Assembly: GCA_964519305.1 (NCBI GenBank)
Contig: CAZFHY010000005.1
Span: 64,001 to 128,000, forward strand
DNA length: 64,000 nt
Direction: 5' to 3'
DNA from: Candidatus Undinarchaeota archaeon
Lineage (GTDB): Archaea > SpSt-1190 > JASMDC01
Shown: positions 36,852 through 60,076 of the stretch, piece by piece
How positions within the stretch are numbered: the first letter of the stretch is position 1
How the letters are laid out: every line of letters starts with the position of its first letter
Position numbers and translations under genes: made by a program
Notes under the pieces: model-generated
What the model was told of the DNA's origin: nothing
Database searches by the model: none
Seen by the model: the letters and a program-made list of their open reading frames with translations, nothing else

Positions 36852-36900
36852 CATAACACTGTTATGATAAACATGTGCGCCGCAGCCTAGATATATTAAC
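36852..36900 (+). promoter_or_regulatory. Candidate operator palindrome plus TATA box of the cdh/fwd cluster
   Basis: Perfect inverted repeat CATAACA-C-TGTTATG (36852-36866) followed by ATATATTAA (36891-36899). Confidence 0.5.
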
Positions 36901-36966
36901 ATTTGCCCCTTTCCCAAACGTATACGGGAGAGATTTTTCCCGGCAACGGACGGGGGTGCACTCGGA

Positions 36967-39270
36967 ATGAGCGAGAAAGAAGAAGAAACCAAGACAGAAC
37001 TCCCTGACATGGGTCTCGGCAACATCCAGATCAATATCGGCGATCTCATCGAGGATTGGGAGGAGGAGGAAGGGCCGACGCCGTTCCCCAGCCTCGAATC
37101 CCTTCGCGAATGGGACCTCAAGTTATTGAAGAGGTACAAGCCGTTCTATATGCCTGCGTGCGATATGTGCTGCCTATGCACCATGGGGAAGTGCGACCTC
37201 CATGGGAAGAAAGGTGCGTGCGGCATCAAGGCCGACGCCCAGCAGGGGCGTATCGTCCTCATCGCCTGTTGCATCGGTACTGCAGCCCATCTGGCCCACG
37301 GCCGTCATCTTCTCAACGTGCTCCTCGAGCGGAAGGGGGCGAACACTAAGATCGACATGGGTGGACAGATCGCTATAGAAGCTCCCCTGACCAGGCTAAT
37401 CACCGGGATCAAGCCACAAAGGCTCGGGGATTTCAGGAAGGTGCTCGATTACTGTGAGGAACAGGTCCTCCACGCACTTTCCGCCACCCACACGGGGCAG
37501 GAAGGTGACGCCCTCGACTTCAACTCCAAAGCGTTCCATGTCAGCATGATCGATAATCTGGCCAAGGAAGTGGCCGACATCATCCAGATCATCGGGTTCG
37601 ACATGCCTAAGGGTGATTCCGAGGCACCTTTGGTGGACATCGGCATGGGCTCGCTCGATCCAAAGAAGCCGGTAATCCTCCTCATAGGCCACAACCTCGT
37701 GTCCGGGACCGATATATCCGACTACCTGGACAAGAACAACCTCTACGACAGCGTAGAGCTCGCGGGCATATGCTGCACCTCCCACGACGTCACACGACAC
37801 GACCACCGTGCAAAGGTCATCGGCCCCCTCTCCATGCAGCTGCGGTTCCTCAAGATGGGCGTCGCTGATGTCATCGTCATTGATGAGCAGTGCGTCCGCA
37901 CAGATGTCCTGGAGCATGCCAAGGAGACCGACACACCCTTGCTCGCAACATCCAACAAGGCCTGCTCGGGCCTCCCGGACCTTTCCAAGGAGGAGCCGGC
38001 GGTCATCATCGACAAGCTCAAGAGCGGTGAGCTCCCGGGCGCGTTCATCCCCGACTTCGCCAAGGTGGGCGAGGTGGCCGTGGAGCTGGCCCGGTACAAG
38101 TACGAACAGAGGAAGGACAAGAAGAACCGGTACCTCAAGTTCGATGTGAAGACCCTCGCTAGCAACTGCACGCAATGTCAGTTGTGTCAGCGTAACTGTC
38201 ACTTCAACAAGGATGTTCCCGCGGCCATGAAGAAGGCCGCCGAGGGGGACCTTACTGAACTCGCCAGGTTCTTTGACGAGTGTACAGGCTGCGGTAAGTG
38301 CGAGAGCGCGTGCAGCAAGGGTCTGCCCATCACCGAGATGGTGCTGGCCGCCGCTAAGGACAAGGTCGCGAACCAGCGGTCGAAGATGCGTATCGGGAGC
38401 GGACCCGTGCAAGACGTGCAGATCCGGACCGTGGGCCAGCCCATCGTGTTCGGGGAGATCCCAGGCATCATAGCGCTGGTGGGATGCCCCAACCACGAGG
38501 GCGGTAGCGCTAACGTCACGATCGCCGAGGAGTTCCTCAAGCGCAACTACATCGTGGTCGTATCCGGCTGCGCCGCTATGGATATCGCCCTCTACTCTGA
38601 CCTGTACGAGCAGTACCCGGGCGTCTTCGACAAGGGCGGCCTGGTCAACGTGGGCTCGTGTGTGGCGAACGCGCACATCCTCGGTGCTGCCGCGAAGGTG
38701 GCCGCCATCTTCGCCCACAGGAAGCTCAGGGCGAACTATGAGGAGATCGCCGATTACATCCTCAACCGTCTGGGGGCCGTGGGCATAGCCTGGGGTGCAT
38801 ACAGCCAGAAGGCAGCATCCATCGCTACGGGTGTGAACCGGATGGGCATCCCCGTGATCGTCGGGCCCCAGGGCAACATCTACCGACGCCTGATGCTCGG
38901 GGACACTGAGGATCCCGAGCGGTGGACGGTCTACAATGCTCGTGACGGCGAGGAGGTCCAGATCGATCCGTGCCCGGAGCATCTCCTGTACGTTGCTGAG
39001 ACCGTGGAGGAGACCATCGTGATGGCGTGCAAGCTCTGTATCCGGCCGAACGACACCGCCAAGGGTCGCCAGATCAAGCTCTCGCACTACATCGACCTTT
39101 CACAGAAGTACCTTGACCGGTTCCCGGACGACATCGACAAGTTCGTCCGCACCGAGCAGGACATCCCGCTCACCTACCGTGAACAGATGCTCAAGACGCT
39201 GAAGAAGAAAGGGTGGACGCGGAAGAAGACGGTCGATCCGACACTGCTGAAAAGGCTGGTGAGGGGGTGA
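36967..39270 (+). CDS. cdhA: CO dehydrogenase/acetyl-CoA synthase alpha subunit
   Basis: CDMCCLCTMGKC, GHN, GICCT, DEQC, GC, SGC and GSCV.N C-cluster ligands; two extra CxxCxxCxxxC motifs. Confidence 0.98.
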   Translation: MSEKEEETKTELPDMGLGNIQINIGDLIEDWEEEEGPTPFPSLESLREWDLKLLKRYKPFYMPACDMCCLCTMGKCDLHGKKGACGIKADAQQGRIVLIACCIGTAAHLAHGRHLLNVLLERKGANTKIDMGGQIAIEAPLTRLITGIKPQRLGDFRKVLDYCEEQVLHALSATHTGQEGDALDFNSKAFHVSMIDNLAKEVADIIQIIGFDMPKGDSEAPLVDIGMGSLDPKKPVILLIGHNLVSGTDISDYLDKNNLYDSVELAGICCTSHDVTRHDHRAKVIGPLSMQLRFLKMGVADVIVIDEQCVRTDVLEHAKETDTPLLATSNKACSGLPDLSKEEPAVIIDKLKSGELPGAFIPDFAKVGEVAVELARYKYEQRKDKKNRYLKFDVKTLASNCTQCQLCQRNCHFNKDVPAAMKKAAEGDLTELARFFDECTGCGKCESACSKGLPITEMVLAAAKDKVANQRSKMRIGSGPVQDVQIRTVGQPIVFGEIPGIIALVGCPNHEGGSANVTIAEEFLKRNYIVVVSGCAAMDIALYSDLYEQYPGVFDKGGLVNVGSCVANAHILGAAAKVAAIFAHRKLRANYEEIADYILNRLGAVGIAWGAYSQKAASIATGVNRMGIPVIVGPQGNIYRRLMLGDTEDPERWTVYNARDGEEVQIDPCPEHLLYVAETVEETIVMACKLCIRPNDTAKGRQIKLSHYIDLSQKYLDRFPDDIDKFVRTEQDIPLTYREQMLKTLKKKGWTRKKTVDPTLLKRLVRG

Positions 39271-39821
39271 TGGCCGTGGACAAGAAGACACAGGTCAAGG
39301 ACCCGTCATCTAAAACCTACAAACCGATCACGCGTGTCGTACAATCGGTGGAGGCCTGGAACCTCGGGAACGTCCCGGGGTCGAAACGGGCACGCCCGCT
39401 GAACGAGAAGATGGCGGGCGCGCTACTGAACAAGAAGGTCGTCATGCTCATCGGTGCACACACTGATGAAGAGCTTGCGAAAAAGCTCGTCAAGACAGCG
39501 GCGAAGCGCAAGAACGTGAAGCTGATTGGTGTGGGGAGCGGCTACAAGATCCTAAAGGGCCTTTCCAAGAAGGAGCCCGAGTACGAGGCGAACCTCTACG
39601 CATACCTTGCGCGTCTCAAGGACGATGATGATGTCCAAGTGGTGTTCATCATCGGGTTCCCGTACTACATGACATCAGCGGCATATAGTCACCTTAAGCA
39701 CTTCTCGAAGAAAATTTCGGTCAACCTCTCGCGGTTCGGCCAACCAAACGCTACCTATTCACTCGCTAACATGAGCGAAAAGAGCTGGAGAAAAATGATA
39801 GACACGATCTTGGAGGGATGA
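39270..39821 (+). CDS. cdhB: CO dehydrogenase/acetyl-CoA synthase epsilon subunit
   Basis: NVPG.K.A, G..YY.....S.LKHF, QPNA.YS..N motifs; lies between cdhA and cdhC. Confidence 0.9.
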   Translation: MAVDKKTQVKDPSSKTYKPITRVVQSVEAWNLGNVPGSKRARPLNEKMAGALLNKKVVMLIGAHTDEELAKKLVKTAAKRKNVKLIGVGSGYKILKGLSKKEPEYEANLYAYLARLKDDDDVQVVFIIGFPYYMTSAAYSHLKHFSKKISVNLSRFGQPNATYSLANMSEKSWRKMIDTILEG

Positions 39822-39824
39822 TGA

Positions 39825-41252
39825 ATGTTCGAGGACATACCAGTTGAAGTGGGGATCGTCCACGAGGGAGAGCGGATCAGGCAACAACAGATGCACGTTG
39901 AGTTCGGTGGCCCGAAGGTCCCGAACAAGTTCGAGCTGGTCCAGATGAAAGATCCAAAGGAGGTCAAGGACGGGAAGGTGACCGTCGTCGGGAAGGACCT
40001 GGCCGATTTCAAGGTCGGTTCGAGAACTTCCTTCGCGCTCATCTTGCACACCGCCGGAAAGAAGATGGAGAAGGACTTGGAGCCCGTGCTCGAGCGGAGG
40101 ATCCACGACTTCTTCAACTACATCCAGGGCGTGATGCACCTGAACCAGCGCTACGACATCTGGATCAGGGTCAACAAGGACGACGTGAAGAAGGGCCTCA
40201 CCCTGGAGCATCTCGGTAAGATCACGATCCAGCTGATGAAGCAGGAGTTCAAGTTCATCGAGAAGATGGAGGCTTTCATCTACACCGATGAGAAGGAGAT
40301 CGAGTCGAAGATCGCCAACGCACGCGACATCTACGAAGCGCGTGATGCCCGGGCGCGGACACTGACGGACGACGAAGTGGACGAGTTCTATGGTTGTATC
40401 CTCTGCCAGTCCTTCGCACCCATCCATATCTGTGTAGTCACTCCCGAGCGGATGGCCCTGTGCGGTGCCATTTCGTGGTTCGATGCACGTGCCAGTGCGC
40501 GGATCGATCCTGAGGGCCCAAACTTCGTGATCGAGAAGGGTGAAGTTCTGGACGCGGACAAGGGACAATATTCTGGTGTGGACGAGGCCGTTGACGAGAA
40601 GTCGGGCGGCGTCACCAAAGAGATCTACCTGCACTCCATGTTCGGACTGCCCCACACATCATGCGGCTGCTTCGAGGCAATCGTGTTCTACATCCCGGAG
40701 ATCGACGGCGTCGGTCTCGTCAACCGGGAGTACATGGAGACATGTGTTAACGGTCTGAAGTTCTCCCAAATGGCTGAACAGACCGGTGGTGGCGAACAGA
40801 CCGAGGGATTCCTGGGGACGGCAGTCGAGTACTTCCGGTCCAAGAAGTTCCTCAAGGGTGATGGCGGGTGGACCCGGGTCGCCTGGATGCCCAAGGTGGT
40901 CTACGATGCCATCGGGGACTACATCCCCGAGGAGTTCAAGGACAAGATCGCTACCGAGGACGTCAAGAACCTCAAGGATCTGAAATCGTTCCTCGAGGAG
41001 AAGGAGCACCCTCTCGCTCAGGCATGGATGAAGCCGGCTGAGGAGGAGGCTCCGGTCGAAGCCCCCGCTCCAGCAGCGACCGAGATCGCGCCGGTGGCCG
41101 CCGCGCCGGGCGCGCTCATGCAGGTCCCGGCCGGTGCGCCCGTCATGACACTTCCTGCAGCGACCGTCCCGGCCGGTGGTGGTTTCAAGATCACCTTCAA
41201 GAACGCCAGGATCTACGCTGACAAGGTCATCATCCAAAAGGTGAAGGAGTAG
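39825..41252 (+). CDS. cdhC: Acetyl-CoA synthase beta subunit
   Basis: FYGC.LCQSFAP.H.C..TP.R...CGA, HTSCGCFE A-cluster motifs; Ala/Pro linker and C-terminal F.I.FKNA.I module. Confidence 0.98.
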   Translation: MFEDIPVEVGIVHEGERIRQQQMHVEFGGPKVPNKFELVQMKDPKEVKDGKVTVVGKDLADFKVGSRTSFALILHTAGKKMEKDLEPVLERRIHDFFNYIQGVMHLNQRYDIWIRVNKDDVKKGLTLEHLGKITIQLMKQEFKFIEKMEAFIYTDEKEIESKIANARDIYEARDARARTLTDDEVDEFYGCILCQSFAPIHICVVTPERMALCGAISWFDARASARIDPEGPNFVIEKGEVLDADKGQYSGVDEAVDEKSGGVTKEIYLHSMFGLPHTSCGCFEAIVFYIPEIDGVGLVNREYMETCVNGLKFSQMAEQTGGGEQTEGFLGTAVEYFRSKKFLKGDGGWTRVAWMPKVVYDAIGDYIPEEFKDKIATEDVKNLKDLKSFLEEKEHPLAQAWMKPAEEEAPVEAPAPAATEIAPVAAAPGALMQVPAGAPVMTLPAATVPAGGGFKITFKNARIYADKVIIQKVKE

Positions 41253-41267
41253 GACGGGTGACTGCTC

Positions 41268-42020
41268 GTGATCATCGCGGTCTCAGGTAAAGGCGGTACG
41301 GGCAAGACGTTCGTCGCCAGCGTACTGGTCACACAGCTACGCAAGACGTTCCCTGAGGCGGCAATCCTTGCCGTCGATGCCGATCCGGACGCCAACCTGG
41401 CTTTCGCCCTCGGTCTCGAGATGTCCCGCTCCATAGGGGATGTCCGTGAGCAGTTGCTGGCCGAGAAGGACAAGCTCGCCCCCAGCGTTACGAAGCGTGA
41501 GTGGTTGGACGGCCAGGTCTTCGAGGTTACAATCGAGGGGCCGAACTGTGACCTGCTCATCATGGGCAGGCCGGAGGGACGGGGGTGCTACTGCTCGGTC
41601 AACCATCTGCTGAGGAACATCATCGACAGTGCAAAGGACAGCTATGACCACGTTGTGATCGATGCCGAGGCCGGGCTCGAGCACCTGAGCAGGACGACGA
41701 CCAGGGATGTCGATACCTTGGTCGTGGTCACGGACCAATCCCTGAACTCCCTCAAGACCGCCTGTTCGATTCGCACGATGTCCAATGACCTGAAGCTCAA
41801 TGTCGGTAAGCTACTCGTCGTCGGGAACAAGATCCGTGATGGACAGGCTGATTTATTCCAATCAAAAGCCCAGGAAATGGGTCTCGATATCGACGCTATC
41901 GTCCCGTTCGACGAACACGTGACCGAGCTCGACCTAGAGGGCCGCCCCGTGGCGTCGCTCAAGGAAGGGTCGCCCGCCCTTGCGGCCGTCACTGAACTGG
42001 GAAACAGTATCTTTTCATGA
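41268..42020 (+). CDS. cooC: CooC/AcsF-type nickel insertion ATPase
   Basis: GKGGTGKT, DADPD.NL, MGRPEG.GCYC, D.EAGLEHLSR motifs. Confidence 0.95.
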   Translation: MIIAVSGKGGTGKTFVASVLVTQLRKTFPEAAILAVDADPDANLAFALGLEMSRSIGDVREQLLAEKDKLAPSVTKREWLDGQVFEVTIEGPNCDLLIMGRPEGRGCYCSVNHLLRNIIDSAKDSYDHVVIDAEAGLEHLSRTTTRDVDTLVVVTDQSLNSLKTACSIRTMSNDLKLNVGKLLVVGNKIRDGQADLFQSKAQEMGLDIDAIVPFDEHVTELDLEGRPVASLKEGSPALAAVTELGNSIFS

Positions 42021-42035
42021 TAGGTAGTGATCACC

Positions 42036-43256
42036 ATGGCAGAAGAGAAGAAGGATACAAAGAACGGAGCAGTTACGATCTCTGACCTGATGTCAAAGGT
42101 CAAGCGGCTGGAACTGGAGAACGTGTCCATCGAGGCCGATGAGCTCGTGCTCGAGCTCACACCGGCCCTGACGCAGGTCCTTGTCCAGATGATGGGCGGA
42201 GCGGGCCCGGGGATGGCCGGTGCACCGGGTGCCCCTCCCAAGAAGGTCGGGCCTTTCAAGTTCGAGACCCCCATCGCGGAATGGAAGCAGGACATCCTAG
42301 AGCTCACTATCGGAGCGACGAAGGAGGATGGTGGTACGAGGGACTACAGCGTCGTCATCGGTGGCCAGAAGACCATGCCCTTCTACACCTTCGAGGCGAA
42401 GGTCCCGAACATGCCTGTGTTCTCCTATGATATCTTCGACATGGAGCTCAAGCTCCCCAAGGCCGTGCGAATGTACTATGATGGCGTAATGGACAGCCCT
42501 GTCGAATGGGCGAAGACGGCCATCGAGCGGTACAATGCCAAGATGATCACGCTCCATCTTATCTCCACCGATCCCATCAACGGGAAGGACACATCACCAG
42601 AGGACGCAGCGGCGCTCATCGAGGATATGCTCAAAGAGATCAAGGTCCCGATGATCATCTCAGGCTCAGGGAACAGAAAGAAGGACCCGCCTGTGCTGGT
42701 AAAGGCCGCTGAAGCGGCCTCAGGGGAACGGGTGCTCCTGTCAGCGGCGCTCAACGATAATTACCAATCCATAGCTCCGGCGGTAATAGAGCACAATCAC
42801 GCGGTGCTCGCCCTGGCCACCATGGACCCTGCCGCTCAGAAGACACTGACCCGAGGTCTGGTCGTCGAGGGTGTCCCACGGAACAGCATCGTCATGGACA
42901 CGTTCACCGGCTCCCTGGGCTACGGCGTGGAGTACACCATCACCACCATGGAGCGGATCCGTCAGATGGCGTTCCGCGGTGACAAGGACCTCAACTATCC
43001 GATACTCTCGGGGACCTCCAATGCGTGGGCCGCCAGGGAGGCCTGGCGTAAGAACGACGAGTGGGGCGAGAAGCTTTACCGCGGCCCGTTATGGGAGGCG
43101 ACAACCGGGTTAATGGCATTGCTCTCCGGTGCGGACATATTCATGATGCTTCACCCCGGCGCGATCGATGCTCTAAGATCGATCGCCGAGCAGCTCCTCA
43201 TCGAAGAGGACGACTCGAAGCCGATGAAACCCGAGCAATGGATCAAGGGGGTATGA
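42036..43256 (+). CDS. cdhD: Corrinoid Fe-S protein small (delta) subunit
   Basis: IGAT..DGGTR, HLISTDP, GSGN..KDP, LGYG.EY, NAWAAREAW, MLHP motifs. Confidence 0.96.
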   Translation: MAEEKKDTKNGAVTISDLMSKVKRLELENVSIEADELVLELTPALTQVLVQMMGGAGPGMAGAPGAPPKKVGPFKFETPIAEWKQDILELTIGATKEDGGTRDYSVVIGGQKTMPFYTFEAKVPNMPVFSYDIFDMELKLPKAVRMYYDGVMDSPVEWAKTAIERYNAKMITLHLISTDPINGKDTSPEDAAALIEDMLKEIKVPMIISGSGNRKKDPPVLVKAAEAASGERVLLSAALNDNYQSIAPAVIEHNHAVLALATMDPAAQKTLTRGLVVEGVPRNSIVMDTFTGSLGYGVEYTITTMERIRQMAFRGDKDLNYPILSGTSNAWAAREAWRKNDEWGEKLYRGPLWEATTGLMALLSGADIFMMLHPGAIDALRSIAEQLLIEEDDSKPMKPEQWIKGV

Positions 43257-43260
43257 AAGG

Positions 43261-44664
43261 ATGCCACGACTTACACCTATGATGATCTACAAGTATCTCC
43301 CTGGCAGGAACTGCGAGGCCTGCGGCGAGGAATCGTGCATGGCCCTGGCCCTGAAGCTGATCCAGCGGGAGAAAACCCCCGAGAGCTGCGCCAGCATGAC
43401 CGATATGGAGCGCTTGGTGCTCGTTGACATCCTTACTCCGCCCATCAGGGAGATAACCATCGGTAGCGGTGCGACCGCCATCAAGCTCGGTGGTGAGGAG
43501 GTGCTCTATCGGCACGAGCTCAAGTACTTCAATCCGACGGCCATCGCCATTGATATAGCCGACACTATGGACGAGAAGACCATCAAGGAGCGCATCGAAT
43601 TCATCAACACCTTCTCCATAGAAAGGCTCGGCGTCATCCTGAACCTGGACATGGTCGCCATCCGGTGCGCATCGGATGATCCGGCCAAGTTCAAGACCGC
43701 CATCGAGCTCACAATGAAAGAGACGGACAAGTCGCTCATGCTCTGCACGGTCGATCCGAAGTTGATGGAGGAGGGGCTCAAGCTCCTCAAGGGGAAGAAC
43801 CCGGTCATGTACACTGCGACGGCCAAGAACTTCGACGCTTTCGTGTCCCTTGCCAAGACCTACGATGCCACCCTGGTGCTCTACTCGAAGAGCCCATCGA
43901 AGCTGGGGACCATGGTACGGAAGGCTGAGGCCGCAGGGCTCACGCGACTTGTGCTCGATCCCGCGACAGGCATCACCGGTAAGGCGCTGGGGAACTCGAT
44001 CAACCGGATGGTCAAGGAACGCAGGGCCGCTATCGAGAACGGCGTCAAGGAGCTGGGTTATCCCACCCTAACGATCCCGAGCGCCGTGGGACTTACAGAG
44101 GAGGACCCCGTACAGGCCTCGTTCATGGAGACCCTTGTAGCGAGCATACACCTGGACAGGTTCGCGGACATGATCGTGCTCAGTTCGGTGGAGCCTTGGT
44201 CGGTCCTTCCGCTCCTCACCCTCCGCCAGAACATCTACACGGACCCGAGGACGGAGCCGACGGTCAAGGCCGAGCTGTACAAGATCGGCGATCCCGACGA
44301 GCATTCACCCGTCATCCTCACGGTGAACTTCTCTTTAACCTACTTCACAGTGGAGGGCGACCTCCGACGGTCCGGGGTATCTGCCTGGCTCATCGTGCTC
44401 GACACCAACGGATTCGCCGTGGACACGGCAGTTGCAGCGAACACCATGAGCGCGGACGATGTCAAGAAGTTCATCGACGACTTCAAGGTGGAGGAGAAGG
44501 TCAAGCACCGCAAGATGCTGATCCCGGCGCTGGCCGCACAGTTACGGGGCGATCTCGAGGACACGACCGGCTGGGAGATCTTCGTGGCAGGACGGGACTC
44601 GTCAGAGATCGCAGGATTCCTGAAGGACAAGTGGGAATGGAGGGACTCGGTATGGAAAGGGTGA
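43261..44664 (+). CDS. cdhE: Corrinoid Fe-S protein large (gamma) subunit
   Basis: LP..NC..CG..SCMA.A, GGEEVLYRHE, RQNIYTDP, T.NFSLTYFTV..D motifs. Confidence 0.97.
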   Translation: MPRLTPMMIYKYLPGRNCEACGEESCMALALKLIQREKTPESCASMTDMERLVLVDILTPPIREITIGSGATAIKLGGEEVLYRHELKYFNPTAIAIDIADTMDEKTIKERIEFINTFSIERLGVILNLDMVAIRCASDDPAKFKTAIELTMKETDKSLMLCTVDPKLMEEGLKLLKGKNPVMYTATAKNFDAFVSLAKTYDATLVLYSKSPSKLGTMVRKAEAAGLTRLVLDPATGITGKALGNSINRMVKERRAAIENGVKELGYPTLTIPSAVGLTEEDPVQASFMETLVASIHLDRFADMIVLSSVEPWSVLPLLTLRQNIYTDPRTEPTVKAELYKIGDPDEHSPVILTVNFSLTYFTVEGDLRRSGVSAWLIVLDTNGFAVDTAVAANTMSADDVKKFIDDFKVEEKVKHRKMLIPALAAQLRGDLEDTTGWEIFVAGRDSSEIAGFLKDKWEWRDSVWKG

Positions 44665-45491: not shown

Positions 45492-45493
45492 CC

Positions 45494-46357: not shown

Positions 46358-46382
46358 CCAATACATAGGACGGTGATGCCAA

Positions 46383-46841: not shown

Positions 46842-46851
46842 GGTAATCATT

Positions 46852-47262: not shown

Positions 47263-47263
47263 G

Positions 47264-48631: not shown

Positions 48632-48632
48632 G

Positions 48633-51082: not shown

Positions 51083-51109
51083 TCCGTAGTAATGTAGCGA
51101 GGGGTGACC

Positions 51110-52525: not shown

Positions 52526-52529
52526 TACC

Positions 52530-54971
52530 ATGGTGAAAGGAAAAGCTAGCAAGAAGGCATCAGAGTCCTCCAGTGATGACAGCGAGATACGTGTCGGTGT
52601 GTACGTTTGTCATTGCGGTCTGAACATCGCCGGATCGGTCGACTGCGTGGATGTCGCCAAGTTCGCGGCCACGCTACCGAACGTCGTCGTCGCGAAGGAC
52701 AACAAGTACTGCTGCTCGGACCCTGGGCAGGAGGAGATCAAGAAGGACATAAAGGAGCAGAGATTGAACAGGGTCGTTGTCGCATCCTGCACACCACGCC
52801 TCCATGAGCCCACCTTCCGGAATGCCTGCGAGGATGCAGGACTGAACAAGTACCTGTTCGAGATGGCCAACATCCGGGACCACTGCAGCTGGGTCCACCT
52901 CTATGAGAAGGAGAAGGGTACCCAGAAGGCAAAGGACCTGGTCCGGATGGCCGTGTCCAAGGTCTCCCTGCTCAAGCCCCAGGTGGAGCTCGAAGTGCCC
53001 GTGATAAGGAAGACCCTTGTCGTCGGCGGCGGAGTCGCCGGGCTCCAGGCCGCATTGGACCTCGGTAACGCGGGATACCAGGTATATCTCGTTGAGAAGG
53101 AACCGAGCATCGGGGGCAGAATGGCCCAGATCGATAAGACATTCCCTACTCTGGACTGCTCCATCTGCATCCTTGCACCGGTGATGTCCGACGTCGGTCG
53201 TCACCCGAACATCGAGCTAATGGCCAACAGCGAGGTCGTGAACGTCGCAGGGTACATCGGGAACTTCACGGTGACGGTCAAGAAGAAGCCGTGGTACGTC
53301 GTTGAGTGCAACAGCTGTGGCGACTGCGCCAAGGTCTGCCCGGTCCAGGTCCCCAACAAGTTCGACGCCAACTTCGCCCCACGCAAGGCCATCTACACGC
53401 CCTTCGCCCAGGCCGTCCCATCGTGCTACATCGTCGACATGGACCACTGCATCAGATGTCATGAGTGCGTCAAGGCGTGCAAGGCCTCGGGTGCAGGGGC
53501 CATCGACCTCAGGCAGGAGCCCGAGGAGGTCGAGATCGAGGTGGGCACAGTCATCATCGCCACCGGTGCGGACGTGTACGATCCCTCAGCGTTGAAAGCG
53601 TACGGGTACGGACGGTTCCCGAACGTCATCAGCGCTCTGGAGTTCGAGCGTATGATCAATGCCGGGGGACCTTCCGGCGGCCACCTTATCCGGCCCAGCG
53701 ACCGCGAGATCCCGAAGTCGGTAGCGTTCGTCCAGTGCGTAGGATCGCGCTCTGAGAAGTGCGGCCAGCCGTACTGCAGCAGCGTCTGTTGCATGAACAC
53801 GCTCAAGGACGCCCTGCTCATCAAGGAGCACTGGCCTGACACCAAGATCTACGTGTTCTACGTGGACATGCGTTGCTTCGGCAAGGGGTACGAGGACCTC
53901 TACCGAAGGGCGAAAGCTGCGGGCGTGGTGTTCATCCGCGGACTGCCCGCCGAGATCTTCGAGCGCAAGGGAGGTGACCTGCGTATGGTCGGGGAGAACA
54001 CCCTGCAGAAGGAGCTGTTCAACATCGAGTGCGAGATGGCTATCCTTTCCATTGGTCTGAAACCGGGAGAGGACGCCGATACGATCCAACGTCTCTTCAA
54101 CCTCTCTAGGACCGCGGACGGATTCTTCATGGAGGCGCACCCCCAGCTCAAGCCAGTGGACGCACCCACCGGGGGGATCTTCTTCGCCGGATGCGCCGAG
54201 TCGCCAAAGGCCATCAAGGACAGCGTGACCCAGGCCGGCGCGGCCGCGGCCCATGCGAACATCCTCATGGCAAGGGGGAAGGTGACCGTGGAGGCCATCA
54301 CGCCACAGTTGATCGAGGAGAAGTGCAGGGGCTGTGGCCTCTGCGCCAAGGTCTGCCCCTATAACGCCATCGCATTCGACAAGGAGACGAAGAAAATTTC
54401 AATCATCGAGGCCGCGTGTCATGGCTGCGGTACCTGTGGTGCGGAATGCCCCACGAACGCCCTTGTCATGCGCCACTTCACCGACGAGCAGATTTTCTCA
54501 CAGATCGACGCGGCCACCGCGGAGAACGCTGACAAGAAGATCGTCGCGTTCTGCTGCAACTGGTGCTCCTACGCAGGCGCGGACTTCGCTGGTGTGAGCC
54601 GCATGCAGTACCCGCCCAGCGTGCGCATCATACGGATGATGTGCTCGGGGAGGATGGCCACGAAGTTCATCGAGCGGGCCTTCGCACGAGGGGCCGCTAC
54701 GGTGCTCGTCTCGGGCTGTCACATCGGCGACTGCCACTACATAGACGCCAACCACTATGCCAAGAAACGTGTGGAGCGCTTCTGGAAGCGGATGGACAAG
54801 CTTGGCCTTGACAAGGACCGGTTGCACCTGGGATGGTTCTCTGCTGCCGAGGGAGAGCGGTTCTCCAACAAGATCAAGGAAATGGACGCCATCGTTGGGA
54901 AGGTGACGAAGGCTGAGCTGGACAAGACGAAGAAAGCCTTCGAGAAAGCCCTAGGGGGTGGTGACCGATGA
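52530..54971 (+). CDS. hdrA: Heterodisulfide reductase subunit A fused to MvhD
   Basis: GVYVCHCG.NIAG, ASCTPR.HE.TF, ANIR..CSWVH, GGGVAG, DKTFPT.DCS.CIL, QCVGSR, YCSSVCCM; C-terminal FCCNWCSYAGAD.AG..R.QYP...CSGR...GCHIGDCHY (MvhD). Confidence 0.97.
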   Translation: MVKGKASKKASESSSDDSEIRVGVYVCHCGLNIAGSVDCVDVAKFAATLPNVVVAKDNKYCCSDPGQEEIKKDIKEQRLNRVVVASCTPRLHEPTFRNACEDAGLNKYLFEMANIRDHCSWVHLYEKEKGTQKAKDLVRMAVSKVSLLKPQVELEVPVIRKTLVVGGGVAGLQAALDLGNAGYQVYLVEKEPSIGGRMAQIDKTFPTLDCSICILAPVMSDVGRHPNIELMANSEVVNVAGYIGNFTVTVKKKPWYVVECNSCGDCAKVCPVQVPNKFDANFAPRKAIYTPFAQAVPSCYIVDMDHCIRCHECVKACKASGAGAIDLRQEPEEVEIEVGTVIIATGADVYDPSALKAYGYGRFPNVISALEFERMINAGGPSGGHLIRPSDREIPKSVAFVQCVGSRSEKCGQPYCSSVCCMNTLKDALLIKEHWPDTKIYVFYVDMRCFGKGYEDLYRRAKAAGVVFIRGLPAEIFERKGGDLRMVGENTLQKELFNIECEMAILSIGLKPGEDADTIQRLFNLSRTADGFFMEAHPQLKPVDAPTGGIFFAGCAESPKAIKDSVTQAGAAAAHANILMARGKVTVEAITPQLIEEKCRGCGLCAKVCPYNAIAFDKETKKISIIEAACHGCGTCGAECPTNALVMRHFTDEQIFSQIDAATAENADKKIVAFCCNWCSYAGADFAGVSRMQYPPSVRIIRMMCSGRMATKFIERAFARGAATVLVSGCHIGDCHYIDANHYAKKRVERFWKRMDKLGLDKDRLHLGWFSAAEGERFSNKIKEMDAIVGKVTKAELDKTKKAFEKALGGGDR

Positions 54972-56698
54972 GGTGCATGTTGAACACGGGCAGAACGGTC
55001 GGCCAGGGCATGGCCTTAGAGGTCGGCAAGACATCGGCGGAGTACTACGATGAAGTGGCCGTGGCGTTCATGAACGGGGACGACATGGATGACCTGGGGA
55101 TCGCGGAGAACGCGCCCGTCAAGGCCTCTTCGGGCTCAGGTTCTGTCGTTGTCCGGGCAAGAAAGGGTCAGCTAGATCGCGGCAACGTGTTCATCCCCGT
55201 GGGCCCTTGGGCGAACGCCCTCATCGGTGGTGATACCGGGGGTACTGGTATGCCACGGTTCAAGGGCATGTGGATCGAACTATCCAAGACCGAGGACGGG
55301 CCAACATCACTCAACGACCTTCTCCCGAGCAAGGATGAGATCGTCCAAGCTCCCGACCAGTCCCCTCCCCCCACATCTTCCGATGAGGACGAGCGATCGA
55401 TCGTCACGGACGTGGTCTGTCCATTCTGCGGTTGTCTGTGCGACGACGTGGAGCTCGTGATGACAAAGGGGAAGATCACTGACATCGAGATCGGGTGCGA
55501 CATCACCAGGAGCAGGTTCGTCAACTGGGACCGTGACCGGGCGAAGGCCGCGGTGAGGAAGAAGGGAAAGCTCGTGGAAGTACCCCTCAAGGAGGCTTTG
55601 GACAAGGCCGCCGATATCCTGAAGGGAGCGGACTTCCCATTGATCTACGGACTCAGTTCCACCGAGGTCGACGCTCAGCGGCGTGCCATCGAGCTCGCCG
55701 AGCTGCTCGGAGCGACCATCGACAACACATCCTCCGTATGCCATGGACCGACCGTGGTGGCCGCCCAGGACGTCGGCGTGTCAAAATGCACGCTCGGTGA
55801 GGTACGGAACCGGGCGGACCTGGTGATCTACTGGGGATGCAACCCCGCCGAAGCCCATATCAGGCACATCACACGCTATTCGGGGACACCCGAGGGCATG
55901 TACTCTCCTGATGGAAGGGATGATCGCACAATCGTCCACGTGGACGTAAGGGAGACAAAGACCTCCCAGGTGGATCCCCGATGGAAGTACACCTACCAGC
56001 TGGCGGACCAGTTCATCAAGGTCCGGCAGGGCCAGGACTATGAACTCCTGTCCGCGCTTCGGGCCACGCTCAAAGGGCACGATGTGGGTGACGTTGCAGG
56101 CGTCCCGGCCAGCGCCATCAAGGAGCTGGCCGACCGGATGAAGAGCTGTAAGTTCGGTATCATCTTCTTCGGTCTGGGGCTTACCATGTCCGATGGACGT
56201 CACATGAACGTCAATGCGGCCTTGCGCCTTGTCAGGGACCTGAACGACCATACGAAGTTCACCATCCTCCCCATGCGAGGCCATTACAACGTGACGGGGA
56301 TCAACGCGGTCATGACGTGGACCACAGGCTATCCCTTCGCCGTCAACCTATCACGAGGCTACCCGGTGTACAATCCGGGAGAGTTCTCGGCCGTTGACAT
56401 GCTGGCCCGTAAGGAGTGCGATGCCGCGTTAATCATCGCATCTGACCCCGCCGCTAACTTCCCACGGGAAGCGGTCGAACACCTGTCGAAGATACCCACG
56501 ATCGTCATCGATCCGAAGCTCAACCTCACCTCGCCCATCGCCGATGTCCTGATCCCTTCAGCGATCGCCGGTATCGAATGCGAGGGGACCGCCTACAGAA
56601 TGGACGGCATCCCCATCAGGCTCCGAAAGGTGGTCGAGTCCGACCAGCTGCCTGATAAGGTCGTCCTTGAAAAGCTCATCGAGAGGGTGAGACCATGA
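54968..56698 (+). CDS. fwdB: Formylmethanofuran dehydrogenase D::B fusion (second set)
   Basis: N-terminal D domain (TGRT..QG...E.GK, P.GPWAN, TGMP.FKG); Pro/Ser/Asp linker; B domain (CPFCGCLCDD, SVCHGPT, PMRGHYNV). Confidence 0.95.
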   Translation: MRCMLNTGRTVGQGMALEVGKTSAEYYDEVAVAFMNGDDMDDLGIAENAPVKASSGSGSVVVRARKGQLDRGNVFIPVGPWANALIGGDTGGTGMPRFKGMWIELSKTEDGPTSLNDLLPSKDEIVQAPDQSPPPTSSDEDERSIVTDVVCPFCGCLCDDVELVMTKGKITDIEIGCDITRSRFVNWDRDRAKAAVRKKGKLVEVPLKEALDKAADILKGADFPLIYGLSSTEVDAQRRAIELAELLGATIDNTSSVCHGPTVVAAQDVGVSKCTLGEVRNRADLVIYWGCNPAEAHIRHITRYSGTPEGMYSPDGRDDRTIVHVDVRETKTSQVDPRWKYTYQLADQFIKVRQGQDYELLSALRATLKGHDVGDVAGVPASAIKELADRMKSCKFGIIFFGLGLTMSDGRHMNVNAALRLVRDLNDHTKFTILPMRGHYNVTGINAVMTWTTGYPFAVNLSRGYPVYNPGEFSAVDMLARKECDAALIIASDPAANFPREAVEHLSKIPTIVIDPKLNLTSPIADVLIPSAIAGIECEGTAYRMDGIPIRLRKVVESDQLPDKVVLEKLIERVRP

Positions 56699-58314
56699 GC
56701 CTGATCATAGAGAACGGCACCGTCTACGATCCCGCGAACGGGATCGACGGGGAACGGATGGACATCTTCATCAAGGACGGAAAGATCGTCGAGGAAGCGA
56801 AGGGAAAGGTCATCGATGCCACGGGCCTCATCGTCCTCCCGGGCGGTATGGACATACATACCCACATCGCTGGAGGGAAGGTGAACCTTGGCCGGCTGTT
56901 CAGACCGGAGGACCATCGCAAGGATCCTGTGCCGAGGACCGCGGTCTCGCGTGCGGGGACGGGATACTCGGTCCCGACGACCTACGTGACAGGGTACCGT
57001 TACGCGACCATGGGATACACCACGGTGATGGAACCGGCGATCACCCCGCTCTCGGCCCGTCACACGCACGAGGAGCTGGTCGACACACCCATCCTGGACA
57101 AGGCGGGCTACACCCTCCTTGGTAACAACCACTTCGTCATGCACTACATCAAGGAGGGGGACCGGGAGAATCTCAAGAACACCGTTGCCTGGTTCCTGGG
57201 TGCGTCGAAGGGGTACGCCGTGAAACTTGTGAATCCCGGTGGTGTGGAGAACTGGAAGTGGGGCCGTGACGTGGAGAGCCTCGACGATCCAGTGGACAAC
57301 TACGAGGTCACACCACGGGAGGTGCTCGCAGGTCTCGCCAGAGCGAACGAGGAGCTGGGCCTCCCTCATCCCATCCACGTGCACGCCAACAATCTGGGCA
57401 TGCCCGGTAACTATGAGACCACCATCAAGACCATCGACGCCGTCAAGGAGCGTCTCCATCTCACTCACCTGCAGTTCCAGGCGTACACCGGCGAGGGATG
57501 GAAGGACTTCGGTTCCGGGATGGCCGAAATCGCGAAGCTGATCAACAAGCGCGACAACGTGACCTGCGACATGGGACAGGTGATTTTCGACGACACTACC
57601 ACCATGACCGCTGATGGTCCGGCACAGCACCATCTGTACAAGCTGACGAAGAACAAGTGGTTCAACGCGGACGTCGAGATGGAGACGGGGGCCGGCATAG
57701 TCCCGTACAGGTACTTGGAGAGGAATCCGGTCAACGCAGTGCAGTGGGCCATCGGGCTCGAGGTCGCGCTCATGATCACGGATCCCTGGAAGGTAAGCCT
57801 CACGACCGACCACCCCAACGGCGGTCCTTTCTACCACTACCCGAAAATCATCTCTTGGTTGATGAGCAAGAAGGAGCGAGAGACCACCCTTGGTACGATC
57901 CACAAGGCCGCGGCCGCCAGGGCGGCACTGGCGAGCCTTGACAGGGAGTACTCGCTCTATGAGATCGCAGTGATAACGCGAGCGGCCACTGCCAAGGCTC
58001 TCGGGCTAACAGGGAAGGGGCATCTGGGTGTCGGGGCCGACGCGGACCTGGCCATCTACCGTTTCTCAGAGGACGATATCGAGGGCTCGTTCAAACGCAC
58101 GGTCTACACGATCAAGGACGGAAAGATCGTCGTGAAGAACGGGGCCGTGGTCGACACGCCCGAGGGCAGGACCTATTGGATAGATGCTGGTGGTGAGCTC
58201 ACCGACGAGGACCGTCAGGTGTTCACGAAGTACTACACGATGACACCGGATAACTACCCCGTGCAGGCCGAGTATCTGCCACGAGGGGAAGCTGTTCGAA
58301 CCGGAGGGAGCTAA
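56695..58314 (+). CDS. fwdA: Formylmethanofuran dehydrogenase subunit A (second copy)
   Basis: DIHTHIAG.KVN.GR, KLVNPGG, HVHANNLG, THLQF, TTDHPNGGPF motifs. Confidence 0.97.
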   Translation: MSLIIENGTVYDPANGIDGERMDIFIKDGKIVEEAKGKVIDATGLIVLPGGMDIHTHIAGGKVNLGRLFRPEDHRKDPVPRTAVSRAGTGYSVPTTYVTGYRYATMGYTTVMEPAITPLSARHTHEELVDTPILDKAGYTLLGNNHFVMHYIKEGDRENLKNTVAWFLGASKGYAVKLVNPGGVENWKWGRDVESLDDPVDNYEVTPREVLAGLARANEELGLPHPIHVHANNLGMPGNYETTIKTIDAVKERLHLTHLQFQAYTGEGWKDFGSGMAEIAKLINKRDNVTCDMGQVIFDDTTTMTADGPAQHHLYKLTKNKWFNADVEMETGAGIVPYRYLERNPVNAVQWAIGLEVALMITDPWKVSLTTDHPNGGPFYHYPKIISWLMSKKERETTLGTIHKAAAARAALASLDREYSLYEIAVITRAATAKALGLTGKGHLGVGADADLAIYRFSEDDIEGSFKRTVYTIKDGKIVVKNGAVVDTPEGRTYWIDAGGELTDEDRQVFTKYYTMTPDNYPVQAEYLPRGEAVRTGGS

Positions 58315-58315
58315 G

Positions 58316-59125
58316 ATGGTCGTTCTCAAACCCAAGACCGAGTTCACGGTACCTGTCGAGGCAGAATGTATATCGCCCGATGTCTTCGCTGCACGGCCTG
58401 CAAAGGAGCTGGGAAAGCTCGAAGTGCTGTGGGGGAACAAGCTCAAGCCGCTGAGTGAGCTGTTCGAGATCGATCCATCAGGCAAGCTGGACGAGATCGT
58501 CATCGAGGGCGATGTCAGCGCCGTCAAGCACATCGGAGCACGGATGACCACGGGCCTGATAACCATCCACGGGAACGTCGGGATGCACCTCGGCAGAGAG
58601 ATGGACGGCGGCAGGATCATCGTCCACGGGGATGTCGGGGACTGGCTCGGCGCCGAGATGAAGGACGGCACCATCCAGGTCACTGGAAACGCTGGCCACC
58701 TAGCCGGAGCCGGCTACCGGGGCTCGAAGTCCGGTATGGCGGGCGGCACCATCATCATCGAAGGGAATGCTGGCGATGAGGTCGGGGAGCTGATGTGCGG
58801 CGGTACGATCGCCGTCGCTGGCGATCTGGGGACCTTCGCGGGGACGCTCATGACCGGTGGGACCATCGTGTGCCTCGGTGCTCTTGGCGGGCGGGCTGGG
58901 GGTGCGATGGAAGGTGGTACCATCATCGCCCTCACAACACCGCGGCTGCTCCCCACGTTCATCACACAGGGAGCCGATCGCCCTGCCCACGTAGGGGAGC
59001 TCCTGCAGCAGCTTAAGGGCAACGGATTCCCGCTCGCAGAGGAGCATATCGGAGCGCTCTTTGACAGGTACGAAGGTGATATTGCAGGTAAGGGAAAGGG
59101 CGAGGTCCTCGTCAGGATAGGATGA
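58316..59125 (+). CDS. fwdC: Formylmethanofuran dehydrogenase subunit C (second copy)
   Basis: VP.EAECISPD.FA, GXGXG repeats, GAGYRGS..GM.GG motif. Confidence 0.96.
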   Translation: MVVLKPKTEFTVPVEAECISPDVFAARPAKELGKLEVLWGNKLKPLSELFEIDPSGKLDEIVIEGDVSAVKHIGARMTTGLITIHGNVGMHLGREMDGGRIIVHGDVGDWLGAEMKDGTIQVTGNAGHLAGAGYRGSKSGMAGGTIIIEGNAGDEVGELMCGGTIAVAGDLGTFAGTLMTGGTIVCLGALGGRAGGAMEGGTIIALTTPRLLPTFITQGADRPAHVGELLQQLKGNGFPLAEEHIGALFDRYEGDIAGKGKGEVLVRIG

Positions 59126-59146
59126 CATACCAGGAAGGTTCTCATT

Positions 59147-60076
59147 ATGGGACTCAACGAAAGCAGCCTCGGGCTCGTCGAGCAATTGAAGGAAAGGTGC
59201 CCTACGCAGACCCTCGACTGTGGCGCCACGGTGATCGACTGCGGTGTGTCATGGAAAGGGAGCGTTCAGGCAGGGCTATTGTTCGCCAAGATCACCTTAG
59301 GAGGGCTGGCCGAGGTCCAGCTGTCAACCAGAAACGAGAAGGACCTGACCTACCCCGTGGTCGAGGTCCGCACCGACCACCCGACGACGGCCACCATCGC
59401 CTCGCAGATGGCAGGATGGCAGGTTGTCGCCGGGAAGTTCTTCGGCATGGGATCAGGTCCGGCCAGGGCGCTGGCCCTTAAACCCAAGGACGTTTACGAG
59501 GCCATCGACCACCAGCGCGAGGACGATGATGTTGCGGTACTATGCCTTGAGTCGAGTTCGCTCCCGAGCGATGATATTGCGAGGACCGTTGCCAAGGAGT
59601 GTGGTATCAAACCGCGGGACGTTCACCTTCTCGTGGCGCGGACGGACAGTATTACCTCATCGGTCCAGCTGGCAAGTCGGACGCTCGAGATGGGTACGTT
59701 CCGGATGCTCGACGTGCTCAAGTTCGACGTGCGGAAGGTCGTCTCGGCCTTCGGTGTTGCTCCGTTGGCACCCGTGTACAAGGGACTTGCTGCCATGGGG
59801 GCCACAAACGATGCCCTCATCTACGGGGGCGACAACCTGTACTTCATCGACGGCTTCAGTCAAGAGCTAACCGACAAGGTCGTCTCCGAGGGGTCCAAGA
59901 GCTACGGCAAGCGGTTCGAGCAGTTGTTCAAGGAGGCCGGGAAGGACTTCTATAAGATGGACCACGATATATTCGCCCCTGCCAAGGTAACGGTCAACGA
60001 CCTTGCTGCAGGGAGGGTGTATTGCGCCGGACACATCAACCTTGACGTGCTCCGAAAGGTGTTCGCTCAGTCTTGA
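59147..60076 (+). CDS. mch: Methenyl-H4MPT cyclohydrolase
   Basis: GATVIDCGV, LGGL, SQ.AGW, MGSGPARALA.KP, MG.TND...YGG, DFYK.D...FAPA motifs. Confidence 0.97.
   Translation: MGLNESSLGLVEQLKERCPTQTLDCGATVIDCGVSWKGSVQAGLLFAKITLGGLAEVQLSTRNEKDLTYPVVEVRTDHPTTATIASQMAGWQVVAGKFFGMGSGPARALALKPKDVYEAIDHQREDDDVAVLCLESSSLPSDDIARTVAKECGIKPRDVHLLVARTDSITSSVQLASRTLEMGTFRMLDVLKFDVRKVVSAFGVAPLAPVYKGLAAMGATNDALIYGGDNLYFIDGFSQELTDKVVSEGSKSYGKRFEQLFKEAGKDFYKMDHDIFAPAKVTVNDLAAGRVYCAGHINLDVLRKVFAQS

Follow-up and report, generated by a model that had tools for sequence, protein, structure and literature searches.

An operon-like 19-gene Wood-Ljungdahl cluster with an Hdr/NfnB-like module in an uncultured marine archaeon

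Non-methanogenic archaea that fix CO2 by the methanogen-type route are frequent in sediments and have begun to be found in sea water. The question addressed here is how such archaea drive the very low-potential first step of the pathway without a heterodisulfide, and what replaces Mer, the F420-dependent methylene-tetrahydromethanopterin (H4MPT) reductase. The locus that poses it lies in a stretch of 64,000 nucleotides (nt) of a Candidatus Undinarchaeota archaeon (assembly GCA_964519305.1, contig CAZFHY010000005.1, positions 64,001 to 128,000 of the forward strand), hereafter the window, to which all coordinates given without a contig refer. Within it, 19 consecutive genes on the + strand (positions 36967-60076, about 23 kb, contig C5) encode both branches of the H4MPT Wood-Ljungdahl pathway except for the reduction of methylene-H4MPT. 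The reading toward which we lean is that these genes form an operon-like unit of a non-methanogen, in which MetV and MetF act in trans and a heterodisulfide reductase (Hdr)-type module on formylmethanofuran dehydrogenase (Fwd) is coupled to NADP(H) in place of the heterodisulfide.

Gene content and layout of the cluster

The genes were delimited in a six-frame open reading frame (ORF) listing, and the family calls rest on Pfam and NCBIfam profile scans judged against the cut-offs of the respective models. The order is cdhA-B-C, cooC, cdhD-E, mtd, ftr, a gene for a small iron-sulfur (FeS) protein, fwdDBAC, the gene of an HdrC-like::NfnB-like flavoprotein, hdrA::mvhD, fwdD::B-A-C, and mch. In the list below, ACDS is acetyl-CoA decarbonylase/synthase, CODH is carbon monoxide dehydrogenase, and MFR is methanofuran.

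36967-39270, + strand: cdhA, ACDS/CODH alpha subunit (TIGR00314, 1116.7 bits against a cut-off of 781; PF03063)
39270-39821, + strand: cdhB, divergent ACDS epsilon subunit (PF02552, 46.8 bits; TIGR00315, 59.9 bits, below the cut-off of 101.2)
39825-41252, + strand: cdhC, ACDS beta subunit, acetyl-CoA synthase (TIGR00316, 627.5 bits)
41268-42020, + strand: cooC/acsF-type Ni-insertion ATPase, putative (PF01656 and PF13614, MinD/ParA-type P-loop)
42027-43256, + strand: cdhD, ACDS delta subunit (TIGR00381, 405.8 bits)
43261-44664, + strand: cdhE, ACDS gamma (corrinoid FeS) subunit (NF003195, 546.6 bits)
44652-45491, + strand: mtd (NF002162, 359.9 bits against a cut-off of 297; more than one start candidate)
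45494-46357, + strand: ftr, formyl-MFR:H4MPT formyltransferase (NF002554, 360.5 bits)
46383-46841, + strand: FeS protein of 152 amino acids (aa), with a PF04060 "FeS" domain and two [4Fe-4S] motifs, resembling RnfB and the CdhE N terminus
46852-51082, + strand: first Fwd set, with fwdD at 46852-47262, fwdB at 47264-48631, fwdA at 48633-50309, and fwdC at 50306-51082 (NF042908; TIGR03129, 539 bits; TIGR03121, 771 bits; TIGR03122, 237 bits)
51110-52525, + strand: HdrC-like::NfnB/GltD-like FeS flavoprotein, 471 aa (alternative GTG start at 51104)
52530-54971, + strand: hdrA::mvhD fusion, 813 aa, type Ia or "HdrA2" (NF040770, 1207 bits against a cut-off of 1100)
54968-59125, + strand: second Fwd set, with a fwdD::fwdB fusion at 54968-56698 (NF042908 and TIGR03129, 559 bits, in one ORF), fwdA at 56695-58314 (TIGR03121, 798 bits), and fwdC at 58316-59125 (TIGR03122, 258 bits)
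59147-60076, + strand: mch, methenyl-H4MPT cyclohydrolase (TIGR03120, 349.7 bits)

The five-subunit ACDS (CdhABCDE) is thus complete, with CdhB scoring over the Pfam cut-off only and not over that of NCBIfam, and Fwd, Ftr, Mch, and Mtd all exceed NCBIfam equivalog or subfamily cut-offs. The name cooC was given to the P-loop ATPase for its context within the cdh set, and the 152-aa FeS protein, judged by its position, is a candidate electron-entry subunit of the first Fwd set. The initial annotation of the locus, made from the letters without database searches, had described 19 co-oriented genes with overlaps or gaps under 30 nt, and this description was borne out gene for gene: on the chosen starts, all 18 junctions measure between -4 and +27 nt. 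Four of the 18 are 4-nt start/stop overlaps of the ATGA/GTGA type, four more are gaps of 1-2 nt, and the start of cdhB overlaps the stop of cdhA. The same annotation had noted that no mer/metF, mtr, or mcr gene occurs in the window; none was found among the 35 further window ORFs scanned with Pfam, and the matches found genome-wide lie on other contigs.

The 5' side of the cluster carries candidate signals of a transcription start.

36706-36966, + strand: upstream intergenic region of 261 nt, with a candidate archaeal promoter, a conserved leader, and a GGGGGTG ribosome-binding motif
about 36889-36901, + strand: TATA-like box TAGATATATTAAC, about 70 nt before the cdhA start codon

This 261-nt spacer is the sole long gap on the + strand here and contains AT-rich boxes at 36733, 36830, 36862, and 36888 in a genome of 60% G+C. 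When it is compared with that of the sister species, the block TA(G/T)ATATATTAAC at 36889-36901, the leader, and the ribosome-binding motif are kept and the remaining spacer has largely diverged; by this conservation, the block is a candidate archaeal TATA box. Within the cluster, T never occurs five or more times in a row on the + strand, and no intergenic stretch is AT-rich. The AT-rich 10-mers comprise three in coding sequence (cdhB and hdrA) and one at 46844, which is too short for a promoter because it spans the 10-nt junction before fwdD. A scan for sigma-70 promoters and intrinsic terminators gave eight promoter-like sites (5.1 expected) and eight terminator-like sites (11.6 expected), that is, chance levels under a bacterial model unsuited to archaea. 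The sequence is compatible with a single transcript of the 19 genes, which promoters inside coding sequence could still split.

The Hdr/NfnB-like module and its recurrence

Between the two fwd sets lies what had been annotated as an "Hdr module." A module is indeed present, but it is without HdrB, and its first gene encodes not a simple small subunit of glutamate synthase but a fusion of an HdrC-like domain to an NfnB-like flavoprotein. Residues 13-133 of this flavoprotein match HdrC (5odc_C, E 6.5e-17), the N terminus also matching PF13183/PF13534, and residues 100-469 match NfnB-type chains, including Thermotoga maritima NfnB (4ylf_B, 2.2e-59) as well as 8oh5_C, 9bov_A, 9n5u_A, and 5jca_L. 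Two CxxCxxCxxxCP motifs, the FAD-binding GxGxxG, and a second dinucleotide-fold motif, GGGNVAMD, are invariant in 18 aligned homologues. The adjacent HdrA::MvhD aligns through residues 19-662 with Methanothermobacter wolfeii HdrA (5odc_A, E 4e-246) and through residues 668-785 with MvhD (5odc_D); the Hdr-Fwd supercomplexes 7bkb and 9sw6 are among its structure matches. It exceeds the NCBIfam cut-off for the MvhD-fused "HdrA2" form (NF040770), which corresponds to type Ia in the classification set out in the accessible text of PMC12054007. The two genes are separate and 4 nt apart, and fused forms of 900-1150 aa that join HdrA to a GltD/NfnB-like part occur in other archaea. None of the 19 proteins contains a CCG (HdrB-type) domain by Pfam, and CCG proteins are encoded on contigs C21, C4, and C31; at the locus itself, where alone NfnA was looked for, no NfnA-like gene adjoins the flavoprotein.

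In a predicted complex of HdrA residues 1-665 with residues 1-140 of the HdrC-like domain, the interface score ipSAE reached 0.65, compared with 0.00 for the best of three controls; the mark set for this score is reached by 116 of 157 solved complexes and by 2 of 215 mismatched pairs. Three runs agree in 100% of contacts, the per-residue confidence (pLDDT) of the partner is at least 74, and the interface passes through both cluster-binding loops. Because HdrA-HdrC is an already solved pair, the score shows likeness to HdrC only; as modelled, the HdrC-like domain looks like one that still resembles a docking-competent HdrC.

A canonical GltD/NfnB-type gene (Fer4_20 and Pyr_redox_2) is also encoded in the window, where it adjoins two glutamate-dehydrogenase-family genes (22436-25144 and 25351-26736, - strand). 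It is a 34%-identical paralogue of the cluster flavoprotein and possesses the usual N-terminal domain.

The recurrence of the cluster was examined in a sample of 401 archaeal genomes, 114 of which carry mtd. Up to 10 kb on each side of mtd was searched with the 19 cluster proteins in 40 genomes (one from each of 32 families and eight more large genomes). At 25 of the 40 loci, some on short contigs, mtd stands without any other pathway gene, in keeping with the initial statement that in model methanogens and Archaeoglobus these genes are dispersed over several loci; at the other 15, at least one further pathway gene is present. Adjoining cdh genes were found at two loci, and hdrA::mvhD lies beside fwd genes at four, from three families besides the host's own. 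The implied singularity of the cluster was upheld only in part: none of the 40 loci holds all 19 genes, but the cluster is less singular than implied because partial superclusters exist in other non-methanogenic archaea. For example, about 35 kb of one such genome (G174) hold, on mixed strands, cdh, ftr, mtd, fwdD/B, hdrA::mvhD, fwdA/C, mch, and an ATP synthase gene. The cluster is therefore the most compact case of a grouping that non-methanogenic archaea show repeatedly, and no isolated invention.

The closest counterpart is found in the sister species (G001), in which the order is the same over the fetched part. This part comprises 15 complete genes of the 19 and portions of cdhC and hdrA, and protein identities are 72-94%; mtd and ftr are at the expected places on the same contig. 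Apart from this species, full-length relatives of the flavoprotein with at least 49% identity are confined, among the 401 archaeal genomes, to G056 and G119, both of a single further family (f36). Both carry a block mtd-ftr-flavoprotein-hdrA::mvhD-fwdD::B-fwdA-fwdC, which is the order of cluster genes 7, 8, and 14-18, with HdrA 74-76% identical; in G056, a cdh operon lies 6.8 kb beyond this methyl-branch block on the opposite strand. Neither genome has a match to McrA or MetF, and the only matches to the Mer model are weak, luciferase-family ones (at most 99 bits against a cut-off of 349). These nearly complete genomes thus contain cdh, mtd, ftr, fwd, and the Hdr/NfnB-like module, yet the methylene-H4MPT step is unaccounted for in them. 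In a wider protein database, 1,180 relatives of the flavoprotein were found at E 1e-60 or better, and among the best 120, the three with organism-bearing names are all from Bathyarchaeota or "Bathyarchaeaceae"; judging from these names, the family of G056 and G119 is probably Bathyarchaeia. In bacteria, 4 of 61 loci have a full-length relative (34-37% identity) placed between genes for MvhD and an HdrA-like protein; these loci are those of Desulfobaccales, Syntrophobacterales, a "Deltaproteobacteria" metagenome-assembled genome (MAG), and a Chloroflexota MAG.

Methylene step, electron carriers, and direction of the pathway

The host assembly comprises 3.63 Mb in 42 contigs, is estimated to be 99.83% complete with 4.29% contamination, and has a homogeneous G+C content (0.54-0.65 per contig). 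No McrA (PF02249) match was found in it or in G001, G056, G119, G174, and G033. Of Mtr, two MtrH homologues and one MtrA were seen in the host (MtrB-G were not searched for), and the suggestion that the organism is not a methanogen is upheld accordingly. The MtrA gene and one MtrH gene adjoin a MetE-like (Meth_synt_2) gene at C26:2207-4778, and the other MtrH gene adjoins DUF2114 at C9:29537-31781; these loci possibly serve methyl-H4MPT-dependent methyl transfer or methionine synthesis without the membrane Mtr complex. F420-dependent Mer (TIGR03555) has no match even at E 1e-3 in the host genome and none in that of the sister species. A single MetF match was found on contig C17, immediately after a MetV-type gene (PF12225), and because of this metV-metF pair (C17:66954-68530), the methylene step is taken to be encoded elsewhere in the genome, one of the two places the initial annotation had suggested for the missing reductase. 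The pair is surrounded by genes for a YgjP-like peptidase, a helicase, and proteins of unknown function, with no hdr gene among them.

The genes cdh and mch are single copy. However, the cluster is not the sole copy of every gene, because a second mtd-ftr pair (C1:29982-32400), 45% and 44% identical to the cluster copies, adjoins the gene of a CTP-dependent riboflavin kinase, and the two parts of a third fwd set are at C3:131941-133610 (fwdD and fwdB) and C1:156768-159244 (fwdA and fwdC). Supply of the cofactor F420 is indicated by CofH (441 bits) with a CofG-like neighbour.

Several loci outside the window bear on electron flow. A separate hdrC-hdrB-hdrA::mvhD operon lies at C21:6565-10467, its HdrA being 37% identical to that of the cluster, and HdrB/C-like and HdrD-like genes lie on C4 and C31. 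A [NiFe] hydrogenase cluster on the + strand at C13:69222-82334 encodes HdrA-like, HdrA-N::NuoE-like, and NuoF-like proteins, a 2Fe-2S/4Fe-4S protein, MvhD, an FeS protein, sulfhydrogenase beta- and gamma-like subunits, a second MvhD-like stretch, and the [NiFe] small and large subunits; the product may be an NAD(P)-linked bifurcating hydrogenase of the Hdr type. Another hydrogenase, with four subunits and of sulfhydrogenase-like or group 3b-like type, is encoded at C13:101192-105053. Genes for RnfD, an FMN-binding RnfG-like protein, an Rnf-Nqr subunit (RnfE-like), and ApbE are grouped on C10, a lone FrhB-like gene is on C16, and the only A-type ATP synthase operon of the genome is the one directly upstream of the cluster. 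Searches of the genome, which did not extend to nitrate reductases, cytochrome bd, or other acceptors, yielded no complex-I/Ech/Mbh large subunit (PF00346), no haem-copper oxidase (COX1), no sulfite-reductase domain (NIR_SIR), and no ORF with three or more CxxCH motifs (multihaem cytochromes). The host is thus a non-methanogenic, apparently non-respiring archaeon with NAD(P)-linked hydrogen metabolism. The reductive direction, from CO2 as electron sink or carbon source to acetyl-CoA, is favoured because of the NAD(P)-linked hydrogenases, the Rnf-type genes, the adjacent ATP synthase, and the lack of a respiratory system among those searched.

In the reading we lean toward, the ACDS with its Ni-insertion ATPase, Mtd, Ftr, Mch, and the two Fwd sets would carry the pathway, and MetV-MetF would supply the step from methylene- to methyl-H4MPT in trans. 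In solved Mvh-Hdr and Fdh-Hdr-Fmd complexes, MvhD brings mid-potential electrons to the HdrA flavin, the HdrC clusters pass the high-potential electron to HdrB, and the ferredoxin domains of HdrA pass the low-potential electron to ferredoxin or to Fwd/Fmd. The Hdr/NfnB-like module would dock on Fwd as Hdr does in the methanogen Mvh/Fdh-Hdr-Fwd supercomplexes; the HdrC-like domain would take the position of HdrC on HdrA and connect to the NfnB-like FAD, and NADP+/NADPH would thereby replace CoM-S-S-CoB/HdrB (the heterodisulfide of coenzymes M and B and its site) as the high-potential side. The low-potential branch would feed Fwd directly or, in reverse, drain it. Candidate donors at the MvhD domain are the MvhD-containing group 3 [NiFe] hydrogenase cluster on C13 and the lone FrhB-like protein on C16. 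If H2 or formate (about -420 mV) donates the electrons, levels of about -320 and about -520 mV balance each other; if NADPH or F420H2 does, a more positive third acceptor is required. Some of the potentials used here are quoted in the accessible part of PMC5861303.

A number of points weigh against this reading. The 13 sequencing runs on record for this DNA, from four studies, include none of RNA; the argument for co-transcription is drawn from the sequence, and the starts on which the junction lengths depend were chosen by eye (in frame, beside a GGAGG/GGTG-like motif, and agreeing with the family-model start). Among the 19 genes, NCBIfam detects neither a polyferredoxin of the FwdF/MvhB type, the Hdr-Fwd connector in solved supercomplexes, nor a donor module (Mvh or Fdh), so that the mid-potential partner of the MvhD domain is not encoded in the cluster. 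NADPH could be the donor instead of the high-potential acceptor, and the NfnB-like FAD may itself bifurcate, for which reason the electron path cannot be read from homology alone. If H2 is the donor, NADP+-coupled CO2 reduction is estimated to be unfavourable at the very low H2 of seawater. An oxidative role may still apply, the acceptor systems searched for being those named above, and for ADP-forming acetyl-CoA synthetase, there are weak Acd-like matches only (48 and 27 bits). Because the polyferredoxin is lacking and NADPH is possibly the donor, our confidence in this reading is close to balanced.

The initial annotation had offered a different partner for HdrA::MvhD, namely the missing methylene reductase, by analogy with the acetogen complex. 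HdrA::MvhD would then work with MetFV as in Moorella: NAD(P)H would enter through the NfnB-like subunit, the high-potential electron would go to methylene-H4MPT, and the low-potential electron would go to Fwd. All the Moorella-type parts (MetF, MetV, HdrA, HdrB, HdrC, and MvhD) are indeed somewhere in the genome, and the energetics fit, with NAD(P)H at about -320 mV split toward about -530 and about -200 mV (potentials as quoted in the accessible part of PMC5861303). Moreover, in ANME-1 archaea, where MetF is used and Mer is likewise lacking, there is an HdrA that bears an NfnB-like insertion, and the idea has been raised for them in the portion of PMC9012536 that is accessible. However, the conserved partner adjacent to HdrA::MvhD is the HdrC-like::NfnB-like flavoprotein, metVF is beside no hdr gene, and the Moorella Hdr is matched more closely by the hdrC-hdrB-hdrA::mvhD operon on C21. 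Co-occurrence with MetF was rejected as support for a MetFV partner, the module being present in G056 and G119, which have neither MetF nor Mer over the cut-off; in G174, hdrA::mvhD is beside fwd, yet a true Mer (500 bits) is encoded beside MetF far from that cluster. Because the same block occurs in two genomes lacking both reductases, MetFV is decidedly unlikely as the partner of the module; by the same recurrence, in what are probably Bathyarchaeia, the function of the module would be tied to Fwd and NADP(H), not to the methylene step.

Two further explanations concern direction and unity. The cluster might run oxidatively, from acetyl-CoA or methyl groups to CO2, with the module confurcating the electrons of formyl-MFR and of a second donor onto NADP+, or with H2 or formate passed to a partner organism. 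The pathway enzymes (ACDS, Mtd, Mch, Ftr, and Fwd) are reversible, seawater is poor in H2 for the reductive direction, MtrH/MtrA-type genes could feed in methyl groups, and [NiFe] hydrogenases could vent H2. Given that neither Mcr nor a terminal respiratory system was found among those searched (COX1, NIR_SIR, PF00346, and multihaem cytochromes), and that a syntrophic partner is pure conjecture, the oxidative direction appears unlikely. Alternatively, the genes might represent several abutting transcription units from successive insertions, with promoters inside upstream coding sequence, the Hdr/NfnB-like pair being an independent Nfn-like NADPH:ferredoxin hub and no part of Fwd. The cluster looks modular, the mtd-ftr-module-fwd2 block standing alone in G056 and G119. 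However, the overlapping and 1-2-nt junctions are typical of translational coupling, the order is kept in the sister species at the identities given above, and hdrA::mvhD abuts fwd genes in four families, all of which makes this explanation very unlikely.

Taken further, the operon-like, NADP(H)-coupled reading leads to a tentative and wider proposal, in which HdrA::MvhD, the HdrC::NfnB-like protein, and Fwd would constitute a heterodisulfide-independent, NADP-coupled bifurcating CO2 reductase of non-methanogenic H4MPT archaea (this lineage and Bathyarchaeia). It would be the means by which they gain or shed the -530 mV electrons of the formyl-methanofuran step. In the host, whose lineage has large genomes yet is filed with the tiny-genome Undinarchaeia, it would be housed within an "acetyl-CoA pathway cassette" that is complete and transferable. 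The 19 genes, or a five-gene core of the flavoprotein, HdrA::MvhD, and Fwd, provide a compact test set.

The host, the flanking genes, and comparison with known systems

The host belongs to a two-species genus that is alone in its family and carries the genome-taxonomy label Undinarchaeia/Undinarchaeales; the host and sister genomes, of 3.6-3.8 Mb, are filed in one class with Undinarchaeia-like genomes of 0.6-1.2 Mb. In elongation factor 2 (EF-2), the genomes of the same class are 52-56% identical to the host, compared with 58-59% for two Mtd-bearing families, and raw identities favour no group. In a quick EF-2 tree (30 rows, 2 of them wrong ORF picks), the host and its sister species are sister to the same-class family f4 with an SH-aLRT (likelihood-ratio branch test) support of 92. 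In a quick tree of initiation factor aIF5B (37 rows; 5 of 42 dropped for lack of a G-domain motif), they fall outside a 97%-supported clade of same-class families and group weakly (80) with three other small-genome families. The two single-gene trees thus disagree on a placement near Undinarchaeia. A reconciliation study infers, in its accessible part, that this pathway was lost before Undinarchaeota and DPANN cluster 2 arose (PMC13473441). Should the host indeed belong on the Undinarchaeia branch, it would represent a relative with a genome of free-living size that keeps a pathway which, by that inference, had disappeared before the group came into being.

Two features flank the cluster directly on the same strand.

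26919-35575, + strand: A-type ATP synthase operon directly upstream, outside the cluster (subunits I, C, F, A, B, and D recognised)
60198-60446, + strand: 82-aa Cys-rich, zinc-ribbon-like ORF, 121 nt downstream of mch, without a Pfam match

The 82-aa ORF, which is followed by a convergent gene and has a counterpart of 94% identity at the corresponding position of the sister species, is possibly a 20th gene of the cluster or else a separate unit. The ATP synthase differs markedly between the two congeneric species, AtpA and AtpB being 59-66% and AtpD 43% identical, compared with 72-94% for the flanking GFO gene and the pathway genes and 94% for EF-2. Each genome has a single AtpA (the ATP synthase region of the sister species is at G001:C84 5955-9753). 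On these identities, it looks like the ATP synthase was replaced in place in one of the two species. Farther downstream, the - strand gene at 60493-62664 encodes a 723-aa protein that matches no Pfam family over threshold (a GH88 hint of 22.8 bits is weak). Paralogues of it are encoded on C13, C1, and C22, and its copy in the sister species is 90% identical.

Neither this superoperon, nor a separate HdrC::NfnB-like subunit that accompanies HdrA::MvhD within fwd clusters, nor a large-genome relative of Undinarchaeia with the H4MPT pathway is described in the literature covered as open full text, exclusive of supplements and subscription-only papers. Parts of the arrangement are nonetheless familiar. 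The methanogen Mvh/Fdh-HdrABC-Fwd(Fmd) supercomplexes (PDB 7bkb and 9sw2-9sw6) resemble it in that a full HdrA and an MvhD are encoded beside fwd and in that an HdrC-type domain is predicted to dock on HdrA; in Methanocella conradii, for example, a mvhD-hdrABC-fwdABCDFG cluster is described in the accessible text of PMC12054007, which treats HdrA types and hdr-fwd clusters in methanogens. In contrast to these systems, the cluster described here has no HdrB or heterodisulfide site, HdrC is fused to the NfnB-like flavoprotein and MvhD to HdrA, FwdF/MvhB polyferredoxin and hydrogenase/Fdh are lacking, and the host is without Mcr. HdrL, defined in Desulfobacterium autotrophicum as a fusion of HdrA with a glutamate-synthase-like part next to MvhD, type III HdrA, and the HdrA9-11 of ANME-1 likewise combine HdrA with an NAD(P)H site of the NfnB/GltD type and are accompanied by MvhD (PMC2702500, PMC12054007, and PMC9012536, each in its accessible part). 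Here, unlike in those forms, the NAD(P)H flavoprotein is a separate gene product fused to an HdrC-like domain and not inserted in HdrA, and it is encoded within fwd clusters.

The MetFV-HdrABC-MvhD of Moorella thermoacetica (PMC5861303, in part) is comparable as an Hdr-type module in a Wood-Ljungdahl organism without a heterodisulfide, and MetF and MetV are present in both organisms. In the host, however, metVF is on C17, hdrCBA::mvhD on C21, and the cluster on C5, and the module adjoins Fwd in a cluster without HdrB. Other non-methanogens combine the same H4MPT enzyme set with the absence of Mcr and with a missing or replaced Mer, MetF acting as the substitute; these are ANME-1, in which MetF replaces Mer and HdrA forms with an NfnB-like insertion occur (PMC9012536, in the accessible portion), and some termite-gut Bathyarchaeia, from which Mer is reported to be absent in the accessible text of PMC7886697. 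In contrast to these, the carbonyl and methyl branches are united here in one co-oriented string of 19 genes. With the NfnAB/Stn transhydrogenases, the flavoprotein shares its C-terminal 370 residues, which align with NfnB-type chains, whereas the usual N-terminal Fer4_20 is replaced by the HdrC-like domain and no NfnA-like partner is adjacent. The cluster thus combines known kinds, namely an archaeal Wood-Ljungdahl pathway with MetF for Mer and an Hdr module beside Fwd. What is new is that the neighbour of HdrA::MvhD in the fwd context, where HdrB is missing, is an HdrC-like::NfnB-like fusion. Two points stand out, namely that an NADP(H)-type unit would stand in for HdrBC where an Hdr module adjoins Fwd, and that the operon has the completeness of a cassette.

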